From positions 1 to 39,431 of IMG/VR virus record IMGVR_UViG_3300017978_000163: a DNA stretch of 39,431 nucleotides; one strand, given 5' to 3'. This document shows, in pieces, positions 4,122 to 34,292 of the stretch. The position numbers were made by a program, and so were the translations under genes. Source of the DNA: a virus. Position 1 is the stretch's first letter, and each line of letters opens with the position of its first letter. A model generated the notes under the pieces. It had not been told where the DNA came from. It worked only from the letters and a program-made list of their open reading frames with translations, and searched no databases.

Positions 4122-5757
4122 ACAGCAAAACATCACCAACATCCCGTCCAATCGTGTTGAGATCATCGATCCGCGCACGGGGATGGTGTCGCGTGAGTGG
4201 TACCGGTTTTTCCTGAACTTGTTCACCCTTGCGGGTAACGGCGGCAACCAGACATCGCTGGACGATTTGCAGGTTGGGCCACCACCTCAACCAGATTCTG
4301 GTGGCGGCGGTGGTGGTGGCGGCTCGGGCACAGTCACCTCGGTGGATGGTACGGGTGGTGCGGGCATTTCCGTCACGGGGGGCCCCATTACCACCAGTGG
4401 CACGTTGACCATTACCAACACAGCCCCTGACCAAGTTGTCAGTTTGACGGCGGGTACGGGTATAAGCACGAGTGGTACTTACCCTAACTTTACAATCACC
4501 AACACCAGCCCATCGACAGGTGGTGATGTGGTTGGTCCATCGTCTGCGACAGACAATGCTGTGGCTCGTTACGACACGACTACGGGCAAATTGATCCAAA
4601 ACAGTTTGGTCTTGATAGACGACACCGGCAGTGTGACGGGTGTTAACGCCCTGACCGCCGAAAGCCTTACGGTAAACAACAACGCCACACTGGGGTCGTC
4701 AAACACCGACACCTTAGAGGTGAGATCGCGCATCACAACCGATTTGGAACCCAACGCCGACAATGCCAAAGACATTGGTACCAGCGGTAGAAACTGGCGT
4801 GATGGGTTTTTTGGCAGAAACCTCAGTACCGTGAACCTTGAGGTTACCGGCACAACAAGTTTCGACGGTGCTCAAGGCACAAGTGGTCAAGTCCTGACAT
4901 CGGCTGGCACGGGCGCTACGCCTACATGGACAACGCCAACAACTGGTACAGTGACATCGGTGGCTGCTGCCGCAGGAACGGGCATTTCCGTTTCAGGTAG
5001 CCCCATCACAACCAGCGGCACAATCACCATCACCAACACGGCACCCGATCAGGTTGTCAGTTTGACGGGTGCTGGGACAACTGCTGTCACTGGAACCTAC
5101 CCCAACTTCACCATCACATCGAACGACGCCTTCACCGGCACCGTGACAAGTGTTGGCGGCACGGGCACGGTCAGCGGGTTAACCCTAACTGGCACTGTCA
5201 CGACCAGCGGCAATTTGACCCTAGGTGGCACCCTTGCCGTCACCCCGTCCGACTTTGCATCGCAGACGGCCAACACGGTGCTTGCCGCACCCAACGGTTC
5301 TGCTGGCACACCCACGTTCCGCGCACTGGTTGCCGCAGACGTGCCCACGCTCAACCAAAACACCACGGGCACCGCTGCCAACGTAACGGGCACCGTGGCG
5401 ATTGCCAACGGTGGTACGGGCCAAACGACGCAGACGGCAGCGTTTGACGCGCTTGCACCCACGACCACCAAAGGCGACCTGATCGTCGATAACGGCACCA
5501 ACAACGTCCGTTTGGCCGTGGGTATTGACACATACGTGCTTACAGCCGACTCCACCGTTGCGGCGGGAGTTAAGTGGGCCGCTCCTGCTGGTGGTGGCAG
5601 CAACATCACAGCCCAAGGGTTGTGGGAAAATAACACCACCATTTCCAGCAACTACACGATTGCAACTGGCAACAACGCCATGTCGGCAGGTCCGATCACC
5701 GTGGCGTCTGGTGTTGTTGTCACCGTGCCGACGGGTTCGGTCTGGACTATTGTTTAA
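4114..5757 (+). CDS. Tail fibre / tail needle-position fibre protein with internal repeats
   Basis: It has a Gly8 linker and two ~60-aa repeats (GTVTSV..ITTSGT.TITNTAPDQVVSLT..GTYPNFTIT). Generic fibre motifs are present (NAVARYDTTTGKLIQNS, GQVLTSAGTGATPTW, KGDLIVDNGTNNVRLAVG). It sits after the gp10-like gene. Confidence 0.8.
   Translation: MPEQQNITNIPSNRVEIIDPRTGMVSREWYRFFLNLFTLAGNGGNQTSLDDLQVGPPPQPDSGGGGGGGGSGTVTSVDGTGGAGISVTGGPITTSGTLTITNTAPDQVVSLTAGTGISTSGTYPNFTITNTSPSTGGDVVGPSSATDNAVARYDTTTGKLIQNSLVLIDDTGSVTGVNALTAESLTVNNNATLGSSNTDTLEVRSRITTDLEPNADNAKDIGTSGRNWRDGFFGRNLSTVNLEVTGTTSFDGAQGTSGQVLTSAGTGATPTWTTPTTGTVTSVAAAAGTGISVSGSPITTSGTITITNTAPDQVVSLTGAGTTAVTGTYPNFTITSNDAFTGTVTSVGGTGTVSGLTLTGTVTTSGNLTLGGTLAVTPSDFASQTANTVLAAPNGSAGTPTFRALVAADVPTLNQNTTGTAANVTGTVAIANGGTGQTTQTAAFDALAPTTTKGDLIVDNGTNNVRLAVGIDTYVLTADSTVAAGVKWAAPAGGGSNITAQGLWENNTTISSNYTIATGNNAMSAGPITVASGVVVTVPTGSVWTIV
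4327..5229 (+). repeat. Intragenic coding repeats of the fibre gene (copy 1 at 4327..4506, copy 2 at 4945..5121, partial copy 3 at 5137..5229)
   Basis: Protein residues 72-131 and 278-336 are near-identical, and residues 342-372 form a partial third copy. Confidence 0.8.
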
Positions 5758-21836: not shown

Positions 21837-22271
21837 TCAGGCTTTCAAGGCTTCGATGCCTTGGTGCAGCGCACCATAATGCTCGGGCTTCACGTCGTTG
21901 ATGTTCTGGTAGCCGAGGCCAGTCAGGACACCTTGGATCTGTGCGCCCTTTTGTGGGCCAAGCGCCTTGTATGCGCCCATCACGTAGTCGATCAGACCCT
22001 TGCCATCGGCAAACGGCACACCAGCGGGTGCTGCGGCCACTGGGGCAGGTGCGACAAACGTAGGGGGTGCGGGCATTGCGGGTGCTGGTGCAGCCACGGG
22101 TGCTGGTGCAGCCACGGGTGCTGGTGCAGCGGCCACAGGTGCGGGTGCTTGTACCACGGGTGCGGGGGCTGGTGCAACAGGTGCGGCAGGTGCTACATTG
22201 CTCGACTCCATCTTGGCAGTCAGGGCGACCACAGCAGCGGTCAGGGCTTCGATCTTAGCTTCGAGTGACAT
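21837..22271 (-). CDS. Hypothetical protein with a Pro/Ala-repeat linker (144 aa)
   Basis: An N-terminal helix and a C-terminal globular part (GLIDYVMGAYKALGPQKGAQIQGVL) are joined by (APAPVAA)n. GGAGAAG SD. Confidence 0.6.
   Translation of the reverse strand: MSLEAKIEALTAAVVALTAKMESSNVAPAAPVAPAPAPVVQAPAPVAAAPAPVAAPAPVAAPAPAMPAPPTFVAPAPVAAAPAGVPFADGKGLIDYVMGAYKALGPQKGAQIQGVLTGLGYQNINDVKPEHYGALHQGIEALKA
22081..22137. repeat. 18-bp tandem repeat (about 3 copies) encoding the PA-rich linker
   Basis: GGTGCTGGTGCAGCCACG occurs twice exactly (22081..22116), followed by a degenerate third copy. Confidence 0.85.
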
Positions 22272-22458
22272 AAATCTTCTCCAGAGGATTACGGTTTACA
22301 GGGGGGTGGATGGTGACGCGATCTTCTACGAACGCATCGATGAGTTCACGCAAGACATCAGACGGTGTGCTAAACCTTGACGCCTTCGCATGAAACTTGA
22401 TTCGCGTCTTGTCAGTCACACGGGCTGACAGGTACGCTGATTTGGATTTTGGTGTCAT
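22255..22458 (-). CDS. Ribbon-helix-helix (Arc/CopG-like) DNA-binding protein, first gene of the leftward replication operon
   Basis: The segment SAYLSARVTDKTRIKFHAKASRFSTPSDVLRELIDAFVE fits a beta-strand plus two helices. The size is 67 aa. Confidence 0.5.
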   Translation of the reverse strand: MTPKSKSAYLSARVTDKTRIKFHAKASRFSTPSDVLRELIDAFVEDRVTIHPPVNRNPLEKIYVTRS

Positions 22459-22551
22459 GTTGAAAAATTCCGTGATTCAATGTTGTGATTGTTGCACAAC
22501 TGAGTTACACTTGTCAAACAGTTTAACAAATATTTTTTGGAGCGTTGCAAA
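22459..22551. promoter_or_regulatory. Divergent promoter/operator region between the replication operon (leftward) and the primase gene (rightward)
   Basis: On the minus strand there is TTGACA (22517..22512), an 18-nt spacer, then AACAAT. On the plus strand there is TTGTGA (22483), a 17-nt spacer, then TACACT (22506). The palindrome GTTGTG-N7-CACAAC (22482..22500) overlaps both candidates. Confidence 0.35.
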
Positions 22552-22650
22552 ATGACCAGTCAAAAAAAGACCCCGGGGGTTAGCCGGGGTCCAATGGAGA
22601 CACTCACTGAAACGTCGGCAACTGCGATCACCAACAAGGCAAGTGTATGA
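22552..22650 (+). CDS. Possible 32-codon leader ORF translationally coupled (ATGA) to the primase gene
   Basis: ATG 22552 has GGAG 9 nt upstream, and the stop overlaps ATG 22647. It is below the ORF-track size cut-off and contains the hairpin at 22569..22591. Confidence 0.25.
   Translation: MTSQKKTPGVSRGPMETLTETSATAITNKASV
22562..22591 (-). terminator. Leftward-oriented intrinsic terminator
   Basis: GACCCCGG pairs with CCGGGGTC (22569..22591, 7-nt loop). Seven T follow on the minus strand (A-run at 22562..22568 on plus). There is no T-run on the plus side. Confidence 0.55.
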
Positions 22651-27158: not shown

Positions 27159-27464
27159 TCAATCTCCTTTGGCTTGAAACTCGGCGATCAGTTGGTCGAG
27201 CCAAGCATGACGCCACTTCTGTCTGGCAGCGGGGCCAGCGGCTTCTACTGATTTTGGGCCAACCTTTTTTACCAACCATTCATACGCAGTCCCGTGCGGC
27301 CAAAGCCTATCGCTGATAACTTGCTTTGCTTTGTATCGCTGTAGCTCGGATGAACCTCCGCGCACTTTGTCTATGCTGGTGCAGATGTAGGTTACGCCTC
27401 CACCAGTTCGCCCCCCATCCCACAGGTGCTTCTTCGCTTCGATGAATATCTTTGAGGTCTTCAT
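27159..27464 (-). CDS. Hypothetical protein (101 aa)
   Basis: The ORF packs tightly against its neighbours, and its ATG overlaps the stop of the upstream gene (27461..27646) as ATGA. Confidence 0.55.
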   Translation of the reverse strand: MKTSKIFIEAKKHLWDGGRTGGGVTYICTSIDKVRGGSSELQRYKAKQVISDRLWPHGTAYEWLVKKVGPKSVEAAGPAARQKWRHAWLDQLIAEFQAKGD

Positions 27465-27646
27465 GCCACCACCCTCACGATGATGATGCAGGTGCAGACG
27501 ATTGCCACAGCACTGCTGATGTCAGCCCACCACTTCAAGAGCGATGGTTCTTGGGGCCACTCGATGGGGCCGTAGTTCTCGCCGAACGCTTCCTCAATGG
27601 TGCGTGGGTAGCGGTAGGTGATGGGATCGTGTCGTTTGTATTTCAT
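27461..27646 (-). CDS. Small C-tail-anchored membrane protein (61 aa)
   Basis: The TM segment is WWADISSAVAIVCTCIIIVRVV. Confidence 0.5.
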   Translation of the reverse strand: MKYKRHDPITYRYPRTIEEAFGENYGPIEWPQEPSLLKWWADISSAVAIVCTCIIIVRVVA

Positions 27647-27670: not shown

Positions 27671-28063
27671 TCAATTTTTGGACATGACCGATTGATCATT
27701 TGAAACCTGATTTTTCGACATGACCGATTGATCATTTGAAACCTGATTTTTCGACATGACCGATTTTTGGCGTCGACCGATTGACCCGGTGGAACTCAAT
27801 TTTTCGACATGACCGATTTGTGGGGTCAGCACCCCGAACAGACTCGGGGCCATCGCTTCGACGATGCCCAGCACTTCAAGCAAGCGAACAGTGGCCGCAC
27901 CGGGTCCACGTTCTCCCGTGGTCCACTTTTTGAGGGTGTACACGGGTACACCTAATAGGGCCGCTGCACTTTGTTCGCTCAGTTTGTGCCGGTCTATCAG
28001 GGCCAATAAATCAGCCGTAAATTGTGGGTTTTGGGGGGTTTTGGGGGGCTTTTTGTCAGTCAT
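27671..28063 (-). CDS. XRE-type helix-turn-helix DNA-binding protein whose C-terminal tail is encoded by the iteron-like repeats
   Basis: The HTH is LSEQSAAALLGVPVYTLKKWTTGERGPGAATVRLLEVL. The tail SVMSKNQVSNDQ x2 is the translation of the DNA repeats. Confidence 0.65.
   Translation of the reverse strand: MTDKKPPKTPQNPQFTADLLALIDRHKLSEQSAAALLGVPVYTLKKWTTGERGPGAATVRLLEVLGIVEAMAPSLFGVLTPQIGHVEKLSSTGSIGRRQKSVMSKNQVSNDQSVMSKNQVSNDQSVMSKN
27674..27817. repeat. Four direct copies of a 19-bp element, ATTTTT(C/G)GACATGACCGAT (iteron-like); the first two are part of a 36-bp tandem
   Basis: Copies start at 27674, 27710, 27746 and 27799. A degenerate half-copy, TCGACCGATTGA, lies at 27773. The local sequence is visibly AT-rich. 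Confidence 0.9.
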
Positions 28064-28086: not shown

Positions 28087-28115
28087 AAAAATGCCCCTAG
28101 GCTTGAGCCTAGGGG
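28087..28115 (-). terminator. Leftward intrinsic terminator upstream of the HTH gene
   Basis: CCCCTAGGC-TTGA-GCCTAGGGG is a perfect 9-bp stem. On the minus strand it is followed by CATTTTT. Confidence 0.55.
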
Positions 28116-28181: not shown

Positions 28182-28379
28182 TCAAAGCCGTAAGCACTGG
28201 GGGCACCTTCTCGCGTCGTTTAATTGATCTTTTAAGATTTCGTTTTCCTCTCTCAGTTCTTCATTTTCAGCCGTCGCCCGCCCCAGTGCCGCGCATAGGT
28301 CGTCGATCCGGGCCAATAGGTTTGCTTTTTGGGTGTCGCCCGCCATGTATGCGGTGCGCTCGAGTTCATCGGTTTGCAT
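28182..28379 (-). CDS. Small coiled-coil protein (65 aa)
   Basis: AAAGGA SD. It contains a heptad-like stretch, AENEELREENEILKDQLN. Confidence 0.5.
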   Translation of the reverse strand: MQTDELERTAYMAGDTQKANLLARIDDLCAALGRATAENEELREENEILKDQLNDARRCPQCLRL

Positions 28380-28382
28380 AAT

Positions 28383-28682
28383 TTATCCTTTCATGTTGGG
28401 GTCAATTCCAAACCCGTGACGGGTTCTGTACATGCGCTCAGAATCACGATACACGCGCACCAAACCCGATGGGCCGGGGGGTAATAGTTCATAAAAACGC
28501 ACGATGTCGGCCAACCTTTGCGCGTCGGCGTCACTGGGGTTTCTCAGCCGACGGTAATAGTCCGTCGACGCTTCATTGTGGCCGTCGCGTAGGGTCCAAC
28601 AAACCATAAACCCGGACCGGGCGCGTTCTTCAGGAAAGAACAGAATTAATCCGTCGCGCTCAATTTTGGCGATGTATTTCAT
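28383..28682 (-). CDS. Hypothetical protein (99 aa)
   Basis: GAAAGG SD encoded by the upstream Lys-Gly codons. The protein itself ends ..NMKG. Confidence 0.6.
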   Translation of the reverse strand: MKYIAKIERDGLILFFPEERARSGFMVCWTLRDGHNEASTDYYRRLRNPSDADAQRLADIVRFYELLPPGPSGLVRVYRDSERMYRTRHGFGIDPNMKG

Positions 28683-30544: not shown

Positions 30545-30847
30545 TTATGCCCCCTTACGTGCAGACACGCGCACCACGGTATATGGTGCGCCGGTTGTTG
30601 TATGCGCGGCCACCAATTGGCGCGACGGTGCAAATTTGGCCGCGATGGTTTCCCAGTCAGTAACGACGCGACCGGCACAATGGGAAATGGCGACGCGGTG
30701 CGCGGTGCCGTCGATAGCGTCCAAGCCCGACGCGGTCAGGGTTTCTTTTATCGCCTTTTCTTCATCCGTCAATTCGGCGATCTGTGCTTTGATCACGGCC
30801 AAACGGTCGACGGCTAGGGTCAACAATGCAGGGTTTTCGTTTTTCAT
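30545..30847 (-). CDS. Hypothetical protein (100 aa, N-terminal coiled coil)
   Basis: It ends ..ARKGA and contains the helix AVIKAQIAELTDEEKAIKETL. Confidence 0.6.
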   Translation of the reverse strand: MKNENPALLTLAVDRLAVIKAQIAELTDEEKAIKETLTASGLDAIDGTAHRVAISHCAGRVVTDWETIAAKFAPSRQLVAAHTTTGAPYTVVRVSARKGA

Positions 30848-30873
30848 GGTTACGGTTCTTTCTTGGTTACGGG

Positions 30874-31014
30874 TTACAAGGAAAAAGTGATAACGATCAG
30901 GGCGTAGACCGCAAGCGCGGCCAGTACTGCGCCGACAAACTGAGCAAACCCACTGGGGGCTTGCTCACGATGCCGGTTCACGTTCATCTGTTCGATCAGT
31001 TCTCTAGAGTTCAT
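30874..31014 (-). CDS. Possible small C-tail-anchored membrane protein (46 aa)
   Basis: GAAAGG SD 6 nt upstream. The TM is FAQFVGAVLAALAVYALIVITF. It is below the ORF-track cut-off. Confidence 0.4.
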   Translation of the reverse strand: MNSRELIEQMNVNRHREQAPSGFAQFVGAVLAALAVYALIVITFSL

Positions 31015-31052
31015 GGGGTGCCTTTCAGTGGTTACGGGTTACAGACAGACAT

Positions 31053-31081
31053 AGAATAACCCATTGGGTCAGCTTTGTCAA
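31053..31081 (-). promoter_or_regulatory. Candidate sigma70-type promoter (TTGACA-17-TATTCT) flanked and overlapped by two ACCCATTGGGT palindromes
   Basis: The -35 is at 31081..31076 and the -10 at 31058..31053 (minus strand). Palindromes lie at 31059..31069 (in the spacer) and 31083..31093 (just upstream of the -35). Confidence 0.4.
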
Positions 31082-31095
31082 TACCCATTGGGTAA

Positions 31096-31626
31096 CTATT
31101 TTCTAGGGGTTATCCCTAGGCGATATGCGAACGTTGCCGCGTCTCGTTCTTCAACCGTGGCAAAGTATCCAAGGTGAACCACTCGCGCACCGTCTCGCAA
31201 TTGGGCTTTGTAGCGCGGGGGCTTTGCTTCGCGTGGCGCACGATCCAACAGTTCACCCGTGGTTAAGTAGTGCGCCACTATTGACGACAAATACACACGA
31301 TCACCAAAGCGCACACGATCCCCGCACAAAAACAGTTTTTCGGTTTGACGGGTGAACCGTTCGCCGTTGCGCTGCACCACTTCAACCAGTGCAACACGGC
31401 GGCGCATAAGTTCACCGTTCACCAATACGAATGCTTCGTTAATCGTGCGGGGTTTGATGTGTTCGGGTAATGCGGGTTTTTTGCTCGCTTTGGGTTTGCG
31501 GGGCTTTGGTTGCCGTTGCTCAACGGGTGGCGCGTCATTTTGTGCGAGTGAGTGCACTTCGCGCCATTGTTCCTCATCGGTCATTTCGTACCACTCGAAG
31601 GGGCTTATATGTTCGGGGCGTTTCAT
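31096..31626 (-). CDS. AP2-domain DNA-binding protein (176 aa), first gene of the leftward early operon
   Basis: The C-terminus (YKAQLRDGARVVHLGYFATVEERDAATFAYRLG) fits the AP2 pattern (R/K..G+..LG.F.T.EEAA.AY). There is a basic linker (QPKPRKPKASKKP). No HNH motif was seen. Confidence 0.6.
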   Translation of the reverse strand: MKRPEHISPFEWYEMTDEEQWREVHSLAQNDAPPVEQRQPKPRKPKASKKPALPEHIKPRTINEAFVLVNGELMRRRVALVEVVQRNGERFTRQTEKLFLCGDRVRFGDRVYLSSIVAHYLTTGELLDRAPREAKPPRYKAQLRDGARVVHLGYFATVEERDAATFAYRLGITPRK

Positions 31627-31660
31627 TGTGTACCTTTATCGGTGTATCTATGTATCCAAC

Positions 31661-31689
31661 ACTTTAGCACAGTGATGTCAGTATGTCAA
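31661..31689 (-). promoter_or_regulatory. Candidate early leftward promoter (TTGACA-17-TAAAGT)
   Basis: The -35 is at 31689..31684 and the -10 at 31666..31661 (minus strand). It lies about 35 nt upstream of ATG 31626, which has an AAGG SD. Confidence 0.45.
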
Positions 31690-31705
31690 GTTTTAGGGTA
31701 GGTTG

Positions 31706-31733
31706 ATTTTAGAGAATCTGGGATAAATGTCAA
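31706..31733 (-). promoter_or_regulatory. Second candidate early leftward promoter (TTGACA-16-TAAAAT)
   Basis: The -35 is at 31733..31728 and the -10 at 31711..31706 (minus strand), in the AT-rich stretch. Confidence 0.4.
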
Positions 31734-31826
31734 ATTAAAAAAAGCATAAGTGAAATACCTTCGCGTATGCGGGAAAGGTAATAGTGGAAACCTTGTGCAA
31801 GTGTGCTAGATACATGGATACAAATC

Positions 31827-32141
31827 ACCCACTGGGGCAAATTTCCCCCAATCGATTGACCCACTGGGGTAAGCCCCCAGACCCACTGGGTAATGGCCCC
31901 CAATGGCCAATGGCCAATGGCCCATTGGGTTATCTCGCGTATCTATTAACGCTCAGATTCTCAGACCCACTGGGTTAACTGGGGCTAGGTGCGCACCCAT
32001 TGGGACGCGGTGCGCGGGTGCCGGGTTGCTGGGGGTGTCGGGATTTTTGGGGGAGGGGGTAGGGCCGACGGACCTGATGGCCCAGCTATGTAGGCATCAC
32101 AGAACCTGTGAAAATTTTTAAAAAAGTAAAACCCAATGGGT
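31827..32141. promoter_or_regulatory. Array of seven ACCCA-N-TGGG(T/G/A) palindromic 11-mers in the ORF-free control region
   Basis: Copies start at 31827, 31859, 31881, 31920 (GCCC variant), 31965, 31995 and 32131. Two more lie at 31059 and 31083. Confidence 0.85.
31900..31920. repeat. 7-bp tandem repeat CCAATGG x3 (the core of the palindromic motif)
   Basis: The sequence reads ccaatggccaatggccaatgg and runs directly into the gcccattgggt copy. Confidence 0.9.
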
Positions 32142-32154
32142 AACCGTTATCCAC

Positions 32155-32184
32155 TAGACACACCGATTCAATTTCCATTACACT
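32155..32184 (+). promoter_or_regulatory. Candidate rightward (late) promoter, TAGACA-18-TACACT, giving a near-leaderless terS mRNA
   Basis: The hexamers are at 32155..32160 and 32179..32184, and ATG 32194 has no SD. This is a weak call. Confidence 0.25.
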
Positions 32185-32193
32185 CACAGCACT

Positions 32194-32751
32194 ATGAAAC
32201 AAGACCACTCTTCGTTTATAGGCACGGTTGTCACCGGAGAATCATCGTTACCCACATGGCTGTCCGTGCCTGACCCCAAGCCCCCGAAGCTCCCTGCTGA
32301 GTCGAGGGCGCTTCGCCATGTCGAATATGAGCAGATATTCGAGCGGGTCATTGAGGACGTGTACCGTGGCCGGTCACTCCAGTCGCTCATTGAGGATGAC
32401 CATCGGGTCGTGTCCTATGAGGACTTCTTGCGCTGGGTCAAGCGTGACCCGACTCGCCATGAGCGGTTCAAAGAAGCGCAGGAGATGCGCACCGAGTTCT
32501 TGGCCGGGGAGATCTTGGAGATTGCCGACGGCATCGAGTCGGTTGACCCCACATCGAACGATACGGTCAACAGGGACAAGCTGCGCATCGACACGCGCAA
32601 GTGGCTCATGAGCGCACACAACAAGAAACGCTACGGCGAGACAAAGCAGATTGAACTCGGCGGCTCCATATCCATCACCGAGGCACTGGCGCAAGCCCAA
32701 GCCCGGGTGATTGATGCCGAGGTGATTGACGTGACACCAAGGATCGACTGA
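32194..32751 (+). CDS. terS: Terminase small subunit
   Basis: It lies directly upstream of terL, and its stop overlaps the terL start (TGATG). It contains the motif DKLRIDTRKWLMSAHNKKRYGE, typical of TerS families. Confidence 0.6.
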   Translation: MKQDHSSFIGTVVTGESSLPTWLSVPDPKPPKLPAESRALRHVEYEQIFERVIEDVYRGRSLQSLIEDDHRVVSYEDFLRWVKRDPTRHERFKEAQEMRTEFLAGEILEIADGIESVDPTSNDTVNRDKLRIDTRKWLMSAHNKKRYGETKQIELGGSISITEALAQAQARVIDAEVIDVTPRID

Positions 32752-34292
32752 TGCAGAAGCCCCGCTATTCGCCAGAAGAAGAGCAGATGCTCATGACGCA
32801 GCTTTGGAGTCCATCGCTGCGTGATGACCCCGAGGCGTTCGTGTTGTTTGTGTTCCCGTGGGGGCAGAAGAACACACCCCTTGAGCACTTCAAAAGCCCA
32901 CGAGCGTGGCAGCGTCGAGCACTGCGCAGGATCACACAGTTTATCAAGGACAACAAGGGCAAGCAGAACAACGACGAGTTGATCGACGCACTGCGCAGAG
33001 CCGTGTCGTCTGGTCGTGGCGTGGGGAAGTCGGCACTGGTGTCGTGGCTGATCCTGTGGATGCTGACCACTCGTATCGGATCGTCTGTCATCGTGTCGGC
33101 CAACAGCGAGAACCAGTTGCGCAAAGTGACATGGGGTGAGTTGACCAAATGGGTCACGATGGCGTTGAACGCCCACTGGTGGGAACCCACGGCCACGAGC
33201 TTGCAGCCAGCGAACTGGTTGACCGATCTGGTCGAGCGTGACCTGCGTAAAGGCACCCGCTACTGGGGTGCCGAGGGGAAGCTGTGGAGCGAAGAGAACC
33301 CCGATGCGTACGCAGGTGTGCACAACATGGACGGCATGATGGTGATCTTCGACGAAGCATCGGGTATACCGGACAGCATCTGGTCCGTGGCTGCGGGCTT
33401 TTTTACCGAGAACATCTTGGACCGGTATTGGTTCGCGTTCTCCAACGGACGACGCAACACCGGGTACTTCTACGAGGCCGTGGACGGCAGCAAGCGGGAG
33501 TTCTGGGAGAGCGAGAAGATCGACGCCCGCACCGTCGAGGGCACCGACAAGAGCATCTACCAGCAGATTCTTGACGAGTACGGCGAGGACTCCGACGAGG
33601 CTCGGGTCGAGGTCTACGGTGACTTCCCCAAGAGCGGCCAAGACCAGTTCATCGCACCCCACTCGGTCGACGACGCCATGAAGCGCCCACAGTACAAGGA
33701 CATGACCGCACCCGTGATCATCGGCGTTGACCCGGCCCGTGGCGGCATGGACAGCACCGTGATTGCCGTGCGCCGTGGGCGTGACATCGTGGCGATCAAA
33801 CGGTTCAAGGGCGAGGACACCATGAGCGTGGTGGGCCACGTGATTGATGCCATCGAAGAGTACCGCCCAGCACTGACCGTGATCGACGAGGGTGGTCTGG
33901 GCTACGGCATCCTTGACAGATTGAACGAGCAGAAGTACAAAGTGCGCGGGGTGAACTTCGGCTGGAAGGCCAAGAACCCCGTAATGTGGGGCAACAAGCG
34001 GGCTGAGATTTGGGGTGCCATGCGCGATTGGATCAAGACGGCCAGCTTGCCGCAGGACCGATTGCTCAAAAGCGACCTGATCGGCCCGATGAAGAAGCCC
34101 AACTCGGCGGGCACCATTTTTCTTGAGGGGAAGAAGGAAATGAAGGCCCGGGGTGTCGCCTCGCCCGACGCCGCCGATGCGATTGCCGTGACGTTTGCGT
34201 ACCCCGTGGCACATCGGGAGTACAATGAACGCACAATGGTTCGGCGCAACGCGCAGAATGGTTCGGTTTCAACATCTTGGATGGGAAGTTAA
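32751..34292 (+). CDS. terL: Terminase large subunit
   Basis: Walker A-like is SGRGVGKSALVSW and Walker B is MMVIFDEASGI. The RNaseH-like nuclease part begins IIGVDPARGGMDSTVI. The size is 513 aa. Confidence 0.85.
   Translation: MQKPRYSPEEEQMLMTQLWSPSLRDDPEAFVLFVFPWGQKNTPLEHFKSPRAWQRRALRRITQFIKDNKGKQNNDELIDALRRAVSSGRGVGKSALVSWLILWMLTTRIGSSVIVSANSENQLRKVTWGELTKWVTMALNAHWWEPTATSLQPANWLTDLVERDLRKGTRYWGAEGKLWSEENPDAYAGVHNMDGMMVIFDEASGIPDSIWSVAAGFFTENILDRYWFAFSNGRRNTGYFYEAVDGSKREFWESEKIDARTVEGTDKSIYQQILDEYGEDSDEARVEVYGDFPKSGQDQFIAPHSVDDAMKRPQYKDMTAPVIIGVDPARGGMDSTVIAVRRGRDIVAIKRFKGEDTMSVVGHVIDAIEEYRPALTVIDEGGLGYGILDRLNEQKYKVRGVNFGWKAKNPVMWGNKRAEIWGAMRDWIKTASLPQDRLLKSDLIGPMKKPNSAGTIFLEGKKEMKARGVASPDAADAIAVTFAYPVAHREYNERTMVRRNAQNGSVSTSWMGS

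Follow-up and report, generated by a model that had tools for sequence, protein, structure and literature searches.

A predicted early/late transcriptional switch built on an array of 11-bp palindromes in an uncultured freshwater podovirus

Overview

The IMG/VR record IMGVR_UViG_3300017978_000163, 39,431 nucleotides analysed in full and referred to here as the window, looks like the complete genome of a lytic-looking, P22-like freshwater podovirus that has not been cultured. Between its leftward early genes and its rightward late genes there is an array of a palindromic 11-mer, ACCCA-N-TGGGT. We judge it probable, at about 60%, that these sites together serve as the operators of a transcriptional switch from early to late genes, in which a small HigA2/MqsA-like helix-turn-helix (HTH) protein of the Xre family, encoded at 27671-28063 on the minus strand, represses the early promoter and activates the late one. 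The clustering and conservation of the sites, their palindromic unit, the overlap with a promoter, the phasing against a second promoter and a link between HTH protein and 11-mer in bacteria come directly from the sequence and its comparison with relatives; that the HTH protein is the binder, in which direction the late promoter is regulated and what the central copies do is what we infer.

The operator array

Searches of the whole window with the patterns ACCCANTGGG and CCCANTGGG locate ten copies of the 11-mer, starting at 30948, 31059, 31083, 31827, 31859, 31881, 31920, 31965, 31995 and 32131. All ten CCCANTGGG sites lie inside 30948-32141, 1.2 kb of the 39.4 kb, and the rest of the window holds none. 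Dinucleotide-preserving shuffles give mean counts of 1.22 for this pattern and 0.39 for the stricter ACCCANTGGG, and no shuffle reached the observed count. When two mismatches are allowed the motif shows no enrichment outside the control region. An initial annotation of the window had listed nine of these sites, every one at its exact coordinate, and had noticed no full copy elsewhere. The latter is correct beyond 30948-32141, where nothing of comparable density is seen, but the copy at 30948 had been overlooked. This tenth site, ACCCACTGGGG at 30948-30958, is located in the first leftward open reading frame (ORF; 46 aa, 30874-31014), approximately 100 nt downstream of the candidate early promoter.

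All ten window sites are dyads. In 53 distinct arrays from relatives approximately 310 of 341 ACCCA pentamers (about 91%) are followed by an N-TGGGT-like half, which identifies the dyad rather than the half-site as the unit. Full palindromic units suggest that the binder is probably a dimer, and the dimeric regulator postulated from the dyad symmetry gains from the near absence of lone half-sites. The general site across relatives is ACCCA-N-(T/C/G)GGGT. The TAAC or TAAT reported to follow several copies is present after some of those in the window but is not preferred across the family.

Six copies (31827, 31859, 31881, 31920, 31965 and 31995) make up a central array at 31827-32005, which also contains a tandem of CCAATGG. 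Relatives have 3-8 copies here, variable in number and spacing, with neighbouring sites in their arrays 17-119 bp apart. The site-to-site spacing peaks at approximately every 5.5 bp, an observation given no weight since the arrays are phylogenetically related. The CCAATGG tandem, noted previously and now confirmed as 3.3 copies at 31900-31922, continues straight into the site at 31920 and resembles a slippage expansion of the site core.

Could the motif act as RNA? A 5-bp stem with a 1-nt loop should be unable to fold, and an Rfam scan of 30800-32400 at E≤1 gave chance-level matches only and no credible family. A literature search on four variants of the 11-mer retrieved nothing but irrelevant primer sequences.

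The array keeps its position in over 100 related P22-like phages, uncultured and from freshwater. The only close relative in GenBank is Phage DSL-LC05, also assembled from a metagenome, and the paper describing it reports no experiments on regulation. It carries six motif copies in the equivalent gap, though the DNA there is otherwise unalignable by megablast. Eighty IMG/VR loci, found by way of the small terminase TerS (79-99% identity), have the array at the same place, and their flanks, up to 6 kb each way, are almost free of the motif. Conservation of site positions in related phages, proposed in the initial annotation as a check on operator function, is observed for the array as a whole. 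A motif-first scan of IMG/VR extends this to diverged relatives, which keep exact copies at identities of 38-63% for TerS, 44-80% for the large terminase TerL, 36-64% for the HTH protein and 60-70% for the primase-polymerase (prim-pol). TerS relatives of the group number at least 190 in IMG/VR, and metagenomes contain over 1,100 homologues of the regulator. A comparison of protein and motif covariation offered no contrast, the motif being unchanged across all relatives found, with TerL down to 44% identity. We considered a switch of specificity in relatives with ACCCAGCGGGT arrays and rejected it; centres ACT, AAT, AGC, ACC, AAC, ACG and ATC mix within single loci.

Two further loci deserve mention (L-numbers are labels of the loci compared). 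L242 (JAGWWT010000012.1, 35,961 bp) is filed in a metagenome-assembled genome (MAG) of a 'Patescibacteria group bacterium', yet its TerL and portal are approximately 60% identical to those of the window and an eight-site array precedes terS. With near certainty it is a phage genome of this group placed in the wrong bin. Rhodoferax phage P26218 (L198), a distant relative, has a different organisation and no motif copies. At 33300-33660 its 509-bp gap upstream of the terL operon is packed with a different word (CTGCTAC / GTAGCAG), which suggests an analogous control region of other specificity.

The early promoter

Alignment of 18 diverse control regions reveals a fixed plan. From left to right there is a site in the spacer of the early promoter, a second site, 3-8 variable sites, a conserved block of approximately 100 nt, a universal site and the late promoter.

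In the window the candidate early promoter, P_left, occupies 31053-31081 on the minus strand, with TTGACA (31081-31076), a 17-nt spacer and TATTCT (31058-31053). Operator 1, ACCCATTGGGT at 31059-31069, fills the -35/-10 spacer, abuts the -10 and is predicted to be repressing. Operator 2, again ACCCATTGGGT, lies at 31083-31093, upstream of the -35 and separated from it by 1 nt. The centres of operators 1 and 2 are 24 bp apart; for the second site of most relatives this distance is 59 bp. The window version of this design reads TTGACA-AAGCTG-ACCCAATGGGT-TATTCT, and the minus strand at the left end of relatives reads TTGACA, 5-6 nt, ACCCANTGGGT, TAGAAT. We count 37 distinct sequence versions of TTGACA, a 16/17-nt spacer bearing the motif, and TAnnnT. 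The initial annotation had identified this promoter, with one copy in the spacer and one abutting the -35, and had proposed a multi-site switch with repressor geometry on the left and activator-like geometry at the late promoter. The promoter is confirmed, and the proposal is supported by the 37 spacer-operator versions and by the universal, phased site next to terS.

The leftward transcription unit extends from 31014 down to approximately 25.5 kb and consists of small genes, mostly without known function, the gene for the HTH protein among them. The predicted operator therefore overlaps the core promoter of the operon that encodes the HTH protein, with a conserved terminator intervening. Replication genes are found further left: prim-pol/DUF3987, a DUF2800 nuclease, an Enc34-type single-stranded DNA-binding protein and an SNF2 helicase.

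The late promoter

The gene terS (32194-32751, plus strand) encodes an Sf6-like small terminase (PF20901) and is the first of a late operon of approximately 22 kb. It is followed on the same strand by terL and by genes for a P22-like portal, scaffold, major head protein, adaptor, head-closure, ejection and tail proteins. Since the head and tail genes all follow on the plus strand, the rightward unit starting at terS is taken as the whole late operon. The candidate late promoter is at 32155-32184 on the plus strand (TAGACA, 18 nt, TACACT). Only 9 nt separate the end of the -10 from the terS ATG, so that the terS mRNA would be nearly leaderless. Relatives have promoters of moderate strength here (TTGCAC/TAGACA, 17-18 nt, TAGCAT/TACACT), the -10 likewise ending 9 nt before an invariant ACTATG.

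The terS-proximal operator, ACCCAATGGGT at 32131-32141, is universal in the family. Its centre is 58 nt before the terS ATG and it ends 13 bp before the -35, upstream of the candidate promoter as first described; across the family the proximal site overlaps neither -35 nor -10. We placed the centre of this site relative to the terS ATG in 88 distinct sequences. Three classes spaced by 10 bp account for 75 of them (24 clusters): nominally -48 (-47 to -49; 20 sequences, 7 clusters), -58 (-57 to -60; 36 sequences, 11 clusters) and -68 (-67 to -69; 19 sequences, 6 clusters). There is one lone in-between case, at -51. The DNA between the proximal site and the -35 differs from cluster to cluster, so the insertions and deletions tolerated there, which arose repeatedly, have been limited to multiples of roughly one helical turn. 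Such phasing is expected of a factor that faces RNA polymerase, and for this reason we read the proximal site as a putative activating one.

The same HTH protein and the same sites might instead repress both promoters. The protein would then be a maintenance or carrier-state repressor, of pseudolysogeny type, or a delay timer, and late genes would fire once it was inactivated or titrated by the arrays on replicated genomes. Proteins of the HigA2/MqsA type are known as repressors, the DSL-LC05 homologue is annotated 'repressor protein C', ten sites per genome make an effective titration sink, and looping between multiple operators is typical of phage repressors, as at lambda OL/OR. However, the proximal site is never placed over the late -35 or -10, and its helical face is fixed with respect to the promoter and not to another operator, the signature of an activator. 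In addition, scanning of the window proteins revealed no product of an integrase, partition or telomere gene. Of the alternatives to activation at the late promoter this is the one we take most seriously, although we consider it unlikely.

Just upstream of the proximal site is a conserved block at 32092-32130 (plus strand), consisting of TCACAGAACCTGTGA and then the A/T tract GAAAATTTTTAAAAAAGTAAA. A bend, an UP-like element or the site of a second factor are possibilities. The block forms the end of a longer stretch, 32030-32130, in which a G-rich GGGGGAGGGGGTAGGGCC is followed by CTATGTAGG (CTACGTAGG in relatives) and then by TCACAGAACCTGTGA and the A/T tract. It is conserved at the nucleotide level across the family although non-coding and adjacent to the variable array.

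This block, and the location of the array directly upstream of terS in every relative, could also fit a packaging recognition region. TerS oligomers would bind the repeats by their own gene, as with lambda cosB or SPP1 pacL/pacR, to start headful packaging, which an Sf6-like TerS and a P22-like portal do suggest. Against this, TerS falls to 38% identity, its N-terminal helix-turn-helix region included, while the 11-mer stays exact; the DNA-binding region of TerS and the 11-mer are thus not conserved together in the relatives compared. One site lies within the early promoter, approximately 600 bp from terS (1.1 kb in the window), the proximal site is phased relative to promoter elements, and in bacterial operons without a terminase a pair of the 11-mers is a promoter operator. 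A packaging role is improbable on this evidence. The contigs of relatives are either circular or opened at an arbitrary point.

A replication origin, at which the prim-pol/helicase would use the motif copies as initiator sites and a neighbouring A/T-rich tract for unwinding, appears no better placed. The A/T tract and a DnaA-box-like TTATCCAC do flank the site at 32131, and prim-pol/DUF3987 helicase is universal and 60-99% conserved. Prophages of Dyella japonica (L231, 6170-6230) and Paludibacterium purpuratum (L236, 3700-3740) repeat the 11-mer, as AAACCCANTGGGTTT, inside a DUF1376/YdaU-like replication gene, an arrangement of origin within initiator gene as in lambda, where ori is in O. The sites of the window, however, are dyads of irregular spacing and variable number with few lone halves, not direct iterons. 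An A/T tract does occupy 32110-32130, but the DnaA-like box is not conserved. The scan of window proteins turned up no DUF1376 protein, and a separate iteron-like tandem repeat exists at 27676-27814. The prim-pol gene is 7 kb from the array. Packaging and origin functions had both been offered as alternatives in the initial annotation; each is weakened, the former by the divergence of TerS under an exact motif, the latter by the irregular palindromes, and we consider both improbable.

The predicted binding protein

The HTH domain of the predicted binder covers residues 1-85 (27809-28063) and the C-terminal tail is repeat-encoded. When 18 genes of the window were tested, that of the HTH protein was the only one in the early operon present in every locus with enough flanking sequence (46/46), the operon being otherwise highly mosaic. 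Family members are 39-93% identical over the first 85 or so residues, with Thr43, Lys46, Trp47, Gly50 and Arg52 invariant.

The assignment to a family is tentative and draws on several low-scoring matches. The Pfam HTH_3 score is below the cut-off. A profile search of the PDB has MqsA as the best match (E 0.013), and 12 of 14 members match the NCBIfam MqsA family, all below the cut-off. An AlphaFold (AF2) model has a predicted local distance difference test score of 85, and the top eight Foldseek matches to it are all Vibrio cholerae HigA2 (E 0.035). In MqsA, Asn97 and Arg101 are what we take to be the base contacts; the phage equivalents are Phe/Tyr/His and an invariant lysine. This lysine, Lys46, is aligned with MqsA Arg101 and with Asn72 of HigA2, a base-contacting residue (PMC11006873).

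Is the gene part of a toxin-antitoxin (TA) module? The neighbouring genes at 27461-27646, 28182-28379, 28383-28682 and 27159-27464 have no match to RelE, HigB or MqsR in Pfam, PHROGs or NCBIfam, and in view of neighbours without a cognate toxin match we do not class the gene as a type II module. The best 120 of 1,186 homologues all come from the same phage family; the search did not supply more distant contexts.

An intrinsic terminator at 28094-28115 on the minus strand, with a 9-bp GC-rich stem and a T run, precedes the HTH start codon by approximately 30-60 nt. It is kept in nearly all relatives, with compensatory changes in the stem (CCCCTAGG / CCCCTGAC / CCCCCGG / CCCGGGA). With a terminator in this position the regulator would be made only by read-through, which would delay or limit its synthesis and fit a timing switch.

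The 3' end of the gene presents an additional feature. A 36-bp tandem repeat at 27674-27820 (2.6 copies, 98% identical) includes TTTTCGACATGACC four times, at 27676, 27712, 27748 and 27801, and this word is translated as GHVEK or as SVMSKN depending on the frame. That one DNA word is read in two frames suggests selection on the DNA itself. It recurs in the same place in 23 relatives as one or two copies, 53 bp apart. The repeat is iteron-like and could be an origin or the binding site of another factor.

Bacterial loci carrying the 11-mer

We scanned 185,579 bacterial species genomes for a pair of the 11-mers and searched the ORFs of the 120 loci returned with a hidden Markov model (HMM) of the phage HTH protein. 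There were six matches at E<1e-3. Five of these (L217, L244, L283, L297 and L299) are in an operon whose promoter holds the 11-mer pair, and the sixth is not adjacent to the motif. The background rate of HTH proteins in the same loci predicts about 0.1-0.2 chance adjacencies against the five seen. Three of the five loci are operons of a RelE (PF06296) toxin and an HTH_3/MqsA-like antitoxin.

The design of these bacterial promoters is that of P_left: TTGACx, 5-6 nt, ACCCANTGGGT, 0-1 nt and the -10. The L297, L299 and L283 promoters share the spacer-site geometry of operator 1, with TTGACC-GATGTG-ACCCAATGGGT-TACATA in L297 and TTGACA-ATTAA-ACCCAATGGGT-G-TATTAT in L299. The recognition helices are IPVSTLRKW and IPVSTLKKW in the bacterial proteins and VPVYTLKKW in the phage, and the lysine equivalent to Lys46 is present in all. 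RelE-antitoxin modules in bacteria, that of a Burkholderiales MAG (L244) among them, have an operator identical to that of the phage and a near-identical recognition helix. No other window protein has a homologue adjoining the motif in the genomes scanned.

The association of this HTH subfamily with the 11-mer in five unrelated bacterial loci is independent support for the HTH protein as binder, and because of these loci we favour it over proteins that are equally universal in the phages. The initial annotation had named four candidates; the protein of 27671-28063 is strengthened in this way, whilst that of 31096-31626, thought to contain an AP2 domain, fares badly, its gene being optional and the label unsupported (see below).

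The operators may, with slightly lower probability than repression of both promoters, belong to another protein altogether: to the ribbon-helix-helix (RHH) protein of 22255-22458, to another phage protein or to a host regulator. The RHH-like protein, of 67 aa and encoded on the minus strand, occurs, with 40-98% identity, wherever a locus extends far enough upstream of prim-pol to contain it, and the motif persists where the HTH recognition helix has changed. In L096, an unrelated viral contig, an 11-mer pair (4880-4920) lies between two divergent Arc-like RHH genes, one site occupying a TTGACG-17-TCTAAT spacer. Yet the region between the divergent RHH and prim-pol genes, within 22255-22646, is without the motif. 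It carries in relatives a conserved GTATCAC-N4-GTGATAC over a TTGCAC-17-TACACT promoter, the likelier RHH operator. Only the HTH protein has bacterial homologues that adjoin the motif. A host factor common to the hosts of so diverse a group is conceivable, but nothing found here supports it. Between the two genes the window also has a terminator-like hairpin on the minus strand (22569-22591), preceded by an A run.

The 11-mer occurs in other settings. L119, a 171-kb contig, has at least 11 copies at a 21-bp period (88-400), and the A/T-rich contigs L127 (6183-6253) and L160 (2019-2089) have triplets at a 30-bp period. The unrelated viral contigs with an 11-mer pair have no protein in common with the window.

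The proposed switch

We propose the following model with the HTH protein as regulator. Host RNA polymerase would start at the strong P_left and transcribe the mosaic early operon, and partial read-through of the conserved terminator would yield the HTH protein. Its dimers would then bind the 11-bp palindrome. Binding in the P_left spacer, aided by the neighbouring site, should block polymerase and shut off early transcription, and as the HTH gene is in the operon under the spacer operator, binding there would also mean autoregulation. At the weak late promoter, dimers bound at the universal site ahead of the -35 would keep to one face of the helix and may recruit or stabilise polymerase, so turning on the single late operon led by terS. 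The intermediate copies probably increase occupancy or cooperativity locally, or form a bridge between the promoters.

Several points weigh against this model. TerS, prim-pol/helicase and the RHH protein are just as universal as the HTH protein, so the phylogenetic profile does not discriminate between them. In absolute terms the sequence and structure matches in the PDB are poor (E 0.013 and 0.035). L090, L125 and L196, the relatives that have diverged furthest, keep the motif exact although two recognition-helix residues conserved elsewhere are altered (Thr43 to Ala and Arg45 to Ile). Unrelated elements without this HTH protein also carry the 11-mer, such that the motif alone does not name its binder. 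The HTH gene is approximately 3 kb from P_left and behind a terminator, and 'autoregulation' would require read-through. The argument for late activation comes from position and phasing alone. A simple two-promoter switch leaves the six central copies unexplained. Finally, we caution that the phage is known from metagenomes only and that binding of the HTH protein to the sites is a prediction.

Comparison with known systems

A phage control region with multiple operators between divergent early and late promoters is classical, with precedents in lambda, Mu, phi29 and the C proteins. In the Bacillus phage phi29, protein p4 represses from sites over the early promoters and activates from a site upstream of the late promoter. 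The likeness extends to divergent early and late promoters, a short control region, several sites and one small dimeric phage protein. There is no kinship in sequence or fold, however; the p4 sites are wide inverted repeats that act with the histone-like p6, and the phi29 region, with four sites in approximately 220 bp, is smaller than the one described here, which has 6-12 sites in 600-1100 bp. Lambda OL/OR and Mu O1-O3 likewise provide multiple operators between divergent promoters for an Xre-type or similar dimer. The C proteins of restriction-modification (R-M) systems recognise C-boxes, GACT-N3-AGTC, 11-bp dyads with a 3-nt centre, where the distal site activates and the proximal one represses; C.AhdI, C.BclI and C.Esp1396I are among the structural matches to the HTH model. 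The phage differs from all of these in the sequence of its site, in having far more sites and three phased activating positions, and in lacking genes for immunity, lysogeny or R-M.

The closest site is that of Escherichia coli MqsA, which binds AACCT(N)3AGGTT palindromes (PMC4894380). At the mqsRA, csgD and rpoS promoters this is, like the phage site, a compact 11-13-bp dyad with a 3-nt centre, and four of the five half-site bases agree (AACCC as opposed to AACCT). MqsA is also a dimeric Xre-type HTH binder, as predicted for the phage protein, with paired sites in an autoregulated promoter. The phage protein has neither the N-terminal zinc domain nor a toxin partner, the sequence similarity is marginal (E 0.013), and there are two sites for MqsA as against up to 12, one of which seems to act positively on a second promoter.

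V. cholerae HigA2 recognises a 19-bp operator, TGTACGC(N)5GCGTACA, placed between -35 and -10 (PMC11006873). It resembles the phage protein as modelled in the HTH-XRE fold, in dimerisation through the C-terminal helices, in a disordered, basic N-terminal tail and in the location of the operator. It is unlike it in having a single operator with wider half-site spacing and in being a pure autorepressor within a TA module, whereas the phage gene is that of a solo regulator behind a terminator in an early operon.

What is new is the kinship of a toxin-less regulator with TA antitoxins, the repetition of a compact 11-bp site 6-12 times, the three phased positions at the late promoter and the breadth of the system in an abundant uncultured group. 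A conceivable but improbable scenario is that the family captured a TA-type autoregulatory cassette, consisting of an HTH protein and its promoter-embedded operator, and enlarged it to become the single master switch of a lytic podovirus. In that scenario the array and the HTH protein could cross-talk with host TA defence modules, by sponging antitoxin or by silencing or de-repressing a host TA promoter during infection.

If the proposed switch is correct, an antitoxin-type regulator without a toxin serves as a phage developmental switch, and a concrete regulatory model is available for abundant uncultured freshwater phages: one regulator, one 11-bp site, two promoters and one terminator. The predicted operator AACCCANTGGGTT could be assigned to a HigA2/MqsA-like antitoxin subfamily in several bacterial phyla. 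The three late-site positions constitute a natural experiment on face-of-helix dependence.

Other features of the control region

The gene at 31096-31626 (minus strand, 176 aa) splits the control region of the window and lies outside the conserved system. It was initially labelled an AP2-domain gene. No AP2 (PF00847) match is found in Pfam even at E≤5, and none in NCBIfam, PHROGs or a PDB sequence search; the resemblance is by eye and confined to the C-terminal 35 or so residues, Y(R/K)A..R....HLGYFAT.EERDAA.FAY. The label is therefore dropped. Only about twelve related loci have a gene of this kind here, and most relatives, DSL-LC05 included, have none. Since the gene is optional and the motif universal, we excluded its product as the binder. 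It is best seen as an insertion that separates the P_left operator pair by approximately 750 bp from the remaining array in the window. Two strong promoter-like sites that would serve it are present at 31661-31733 on the minus strand (TTGACA-16-TAAAAT and TTGACA-17-TAAAGT) and neither overlaps the motif.

A different word, GTAACCCGTAACC, is found in the 5' leaders of leftward early genes, just upstream of their ribosome-binding sites, at 30865-30877 and 31030-31042 (minus strand) in the window, and is repeated also in L001, L030, L057, L065 and L074. It may be a signal at the RNA level.

In the middle of the control region most relatives have a long-range inverted repeat, GGTGACAAnnnGCCCTTTT ... 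AAAGGnnnnnTGTCRCC (3625-3745 in L001). It surrounds a promoter-like TTAAAT-17-TATATT, with a half-motif GACCCAGTGG in the spacer, and an almost invariant CGCCTTGCCTGCGCGAAAGG. The window, where this region has been largely replaced by the inserted 176-aa gene, retains a remnant at 31765-31790.

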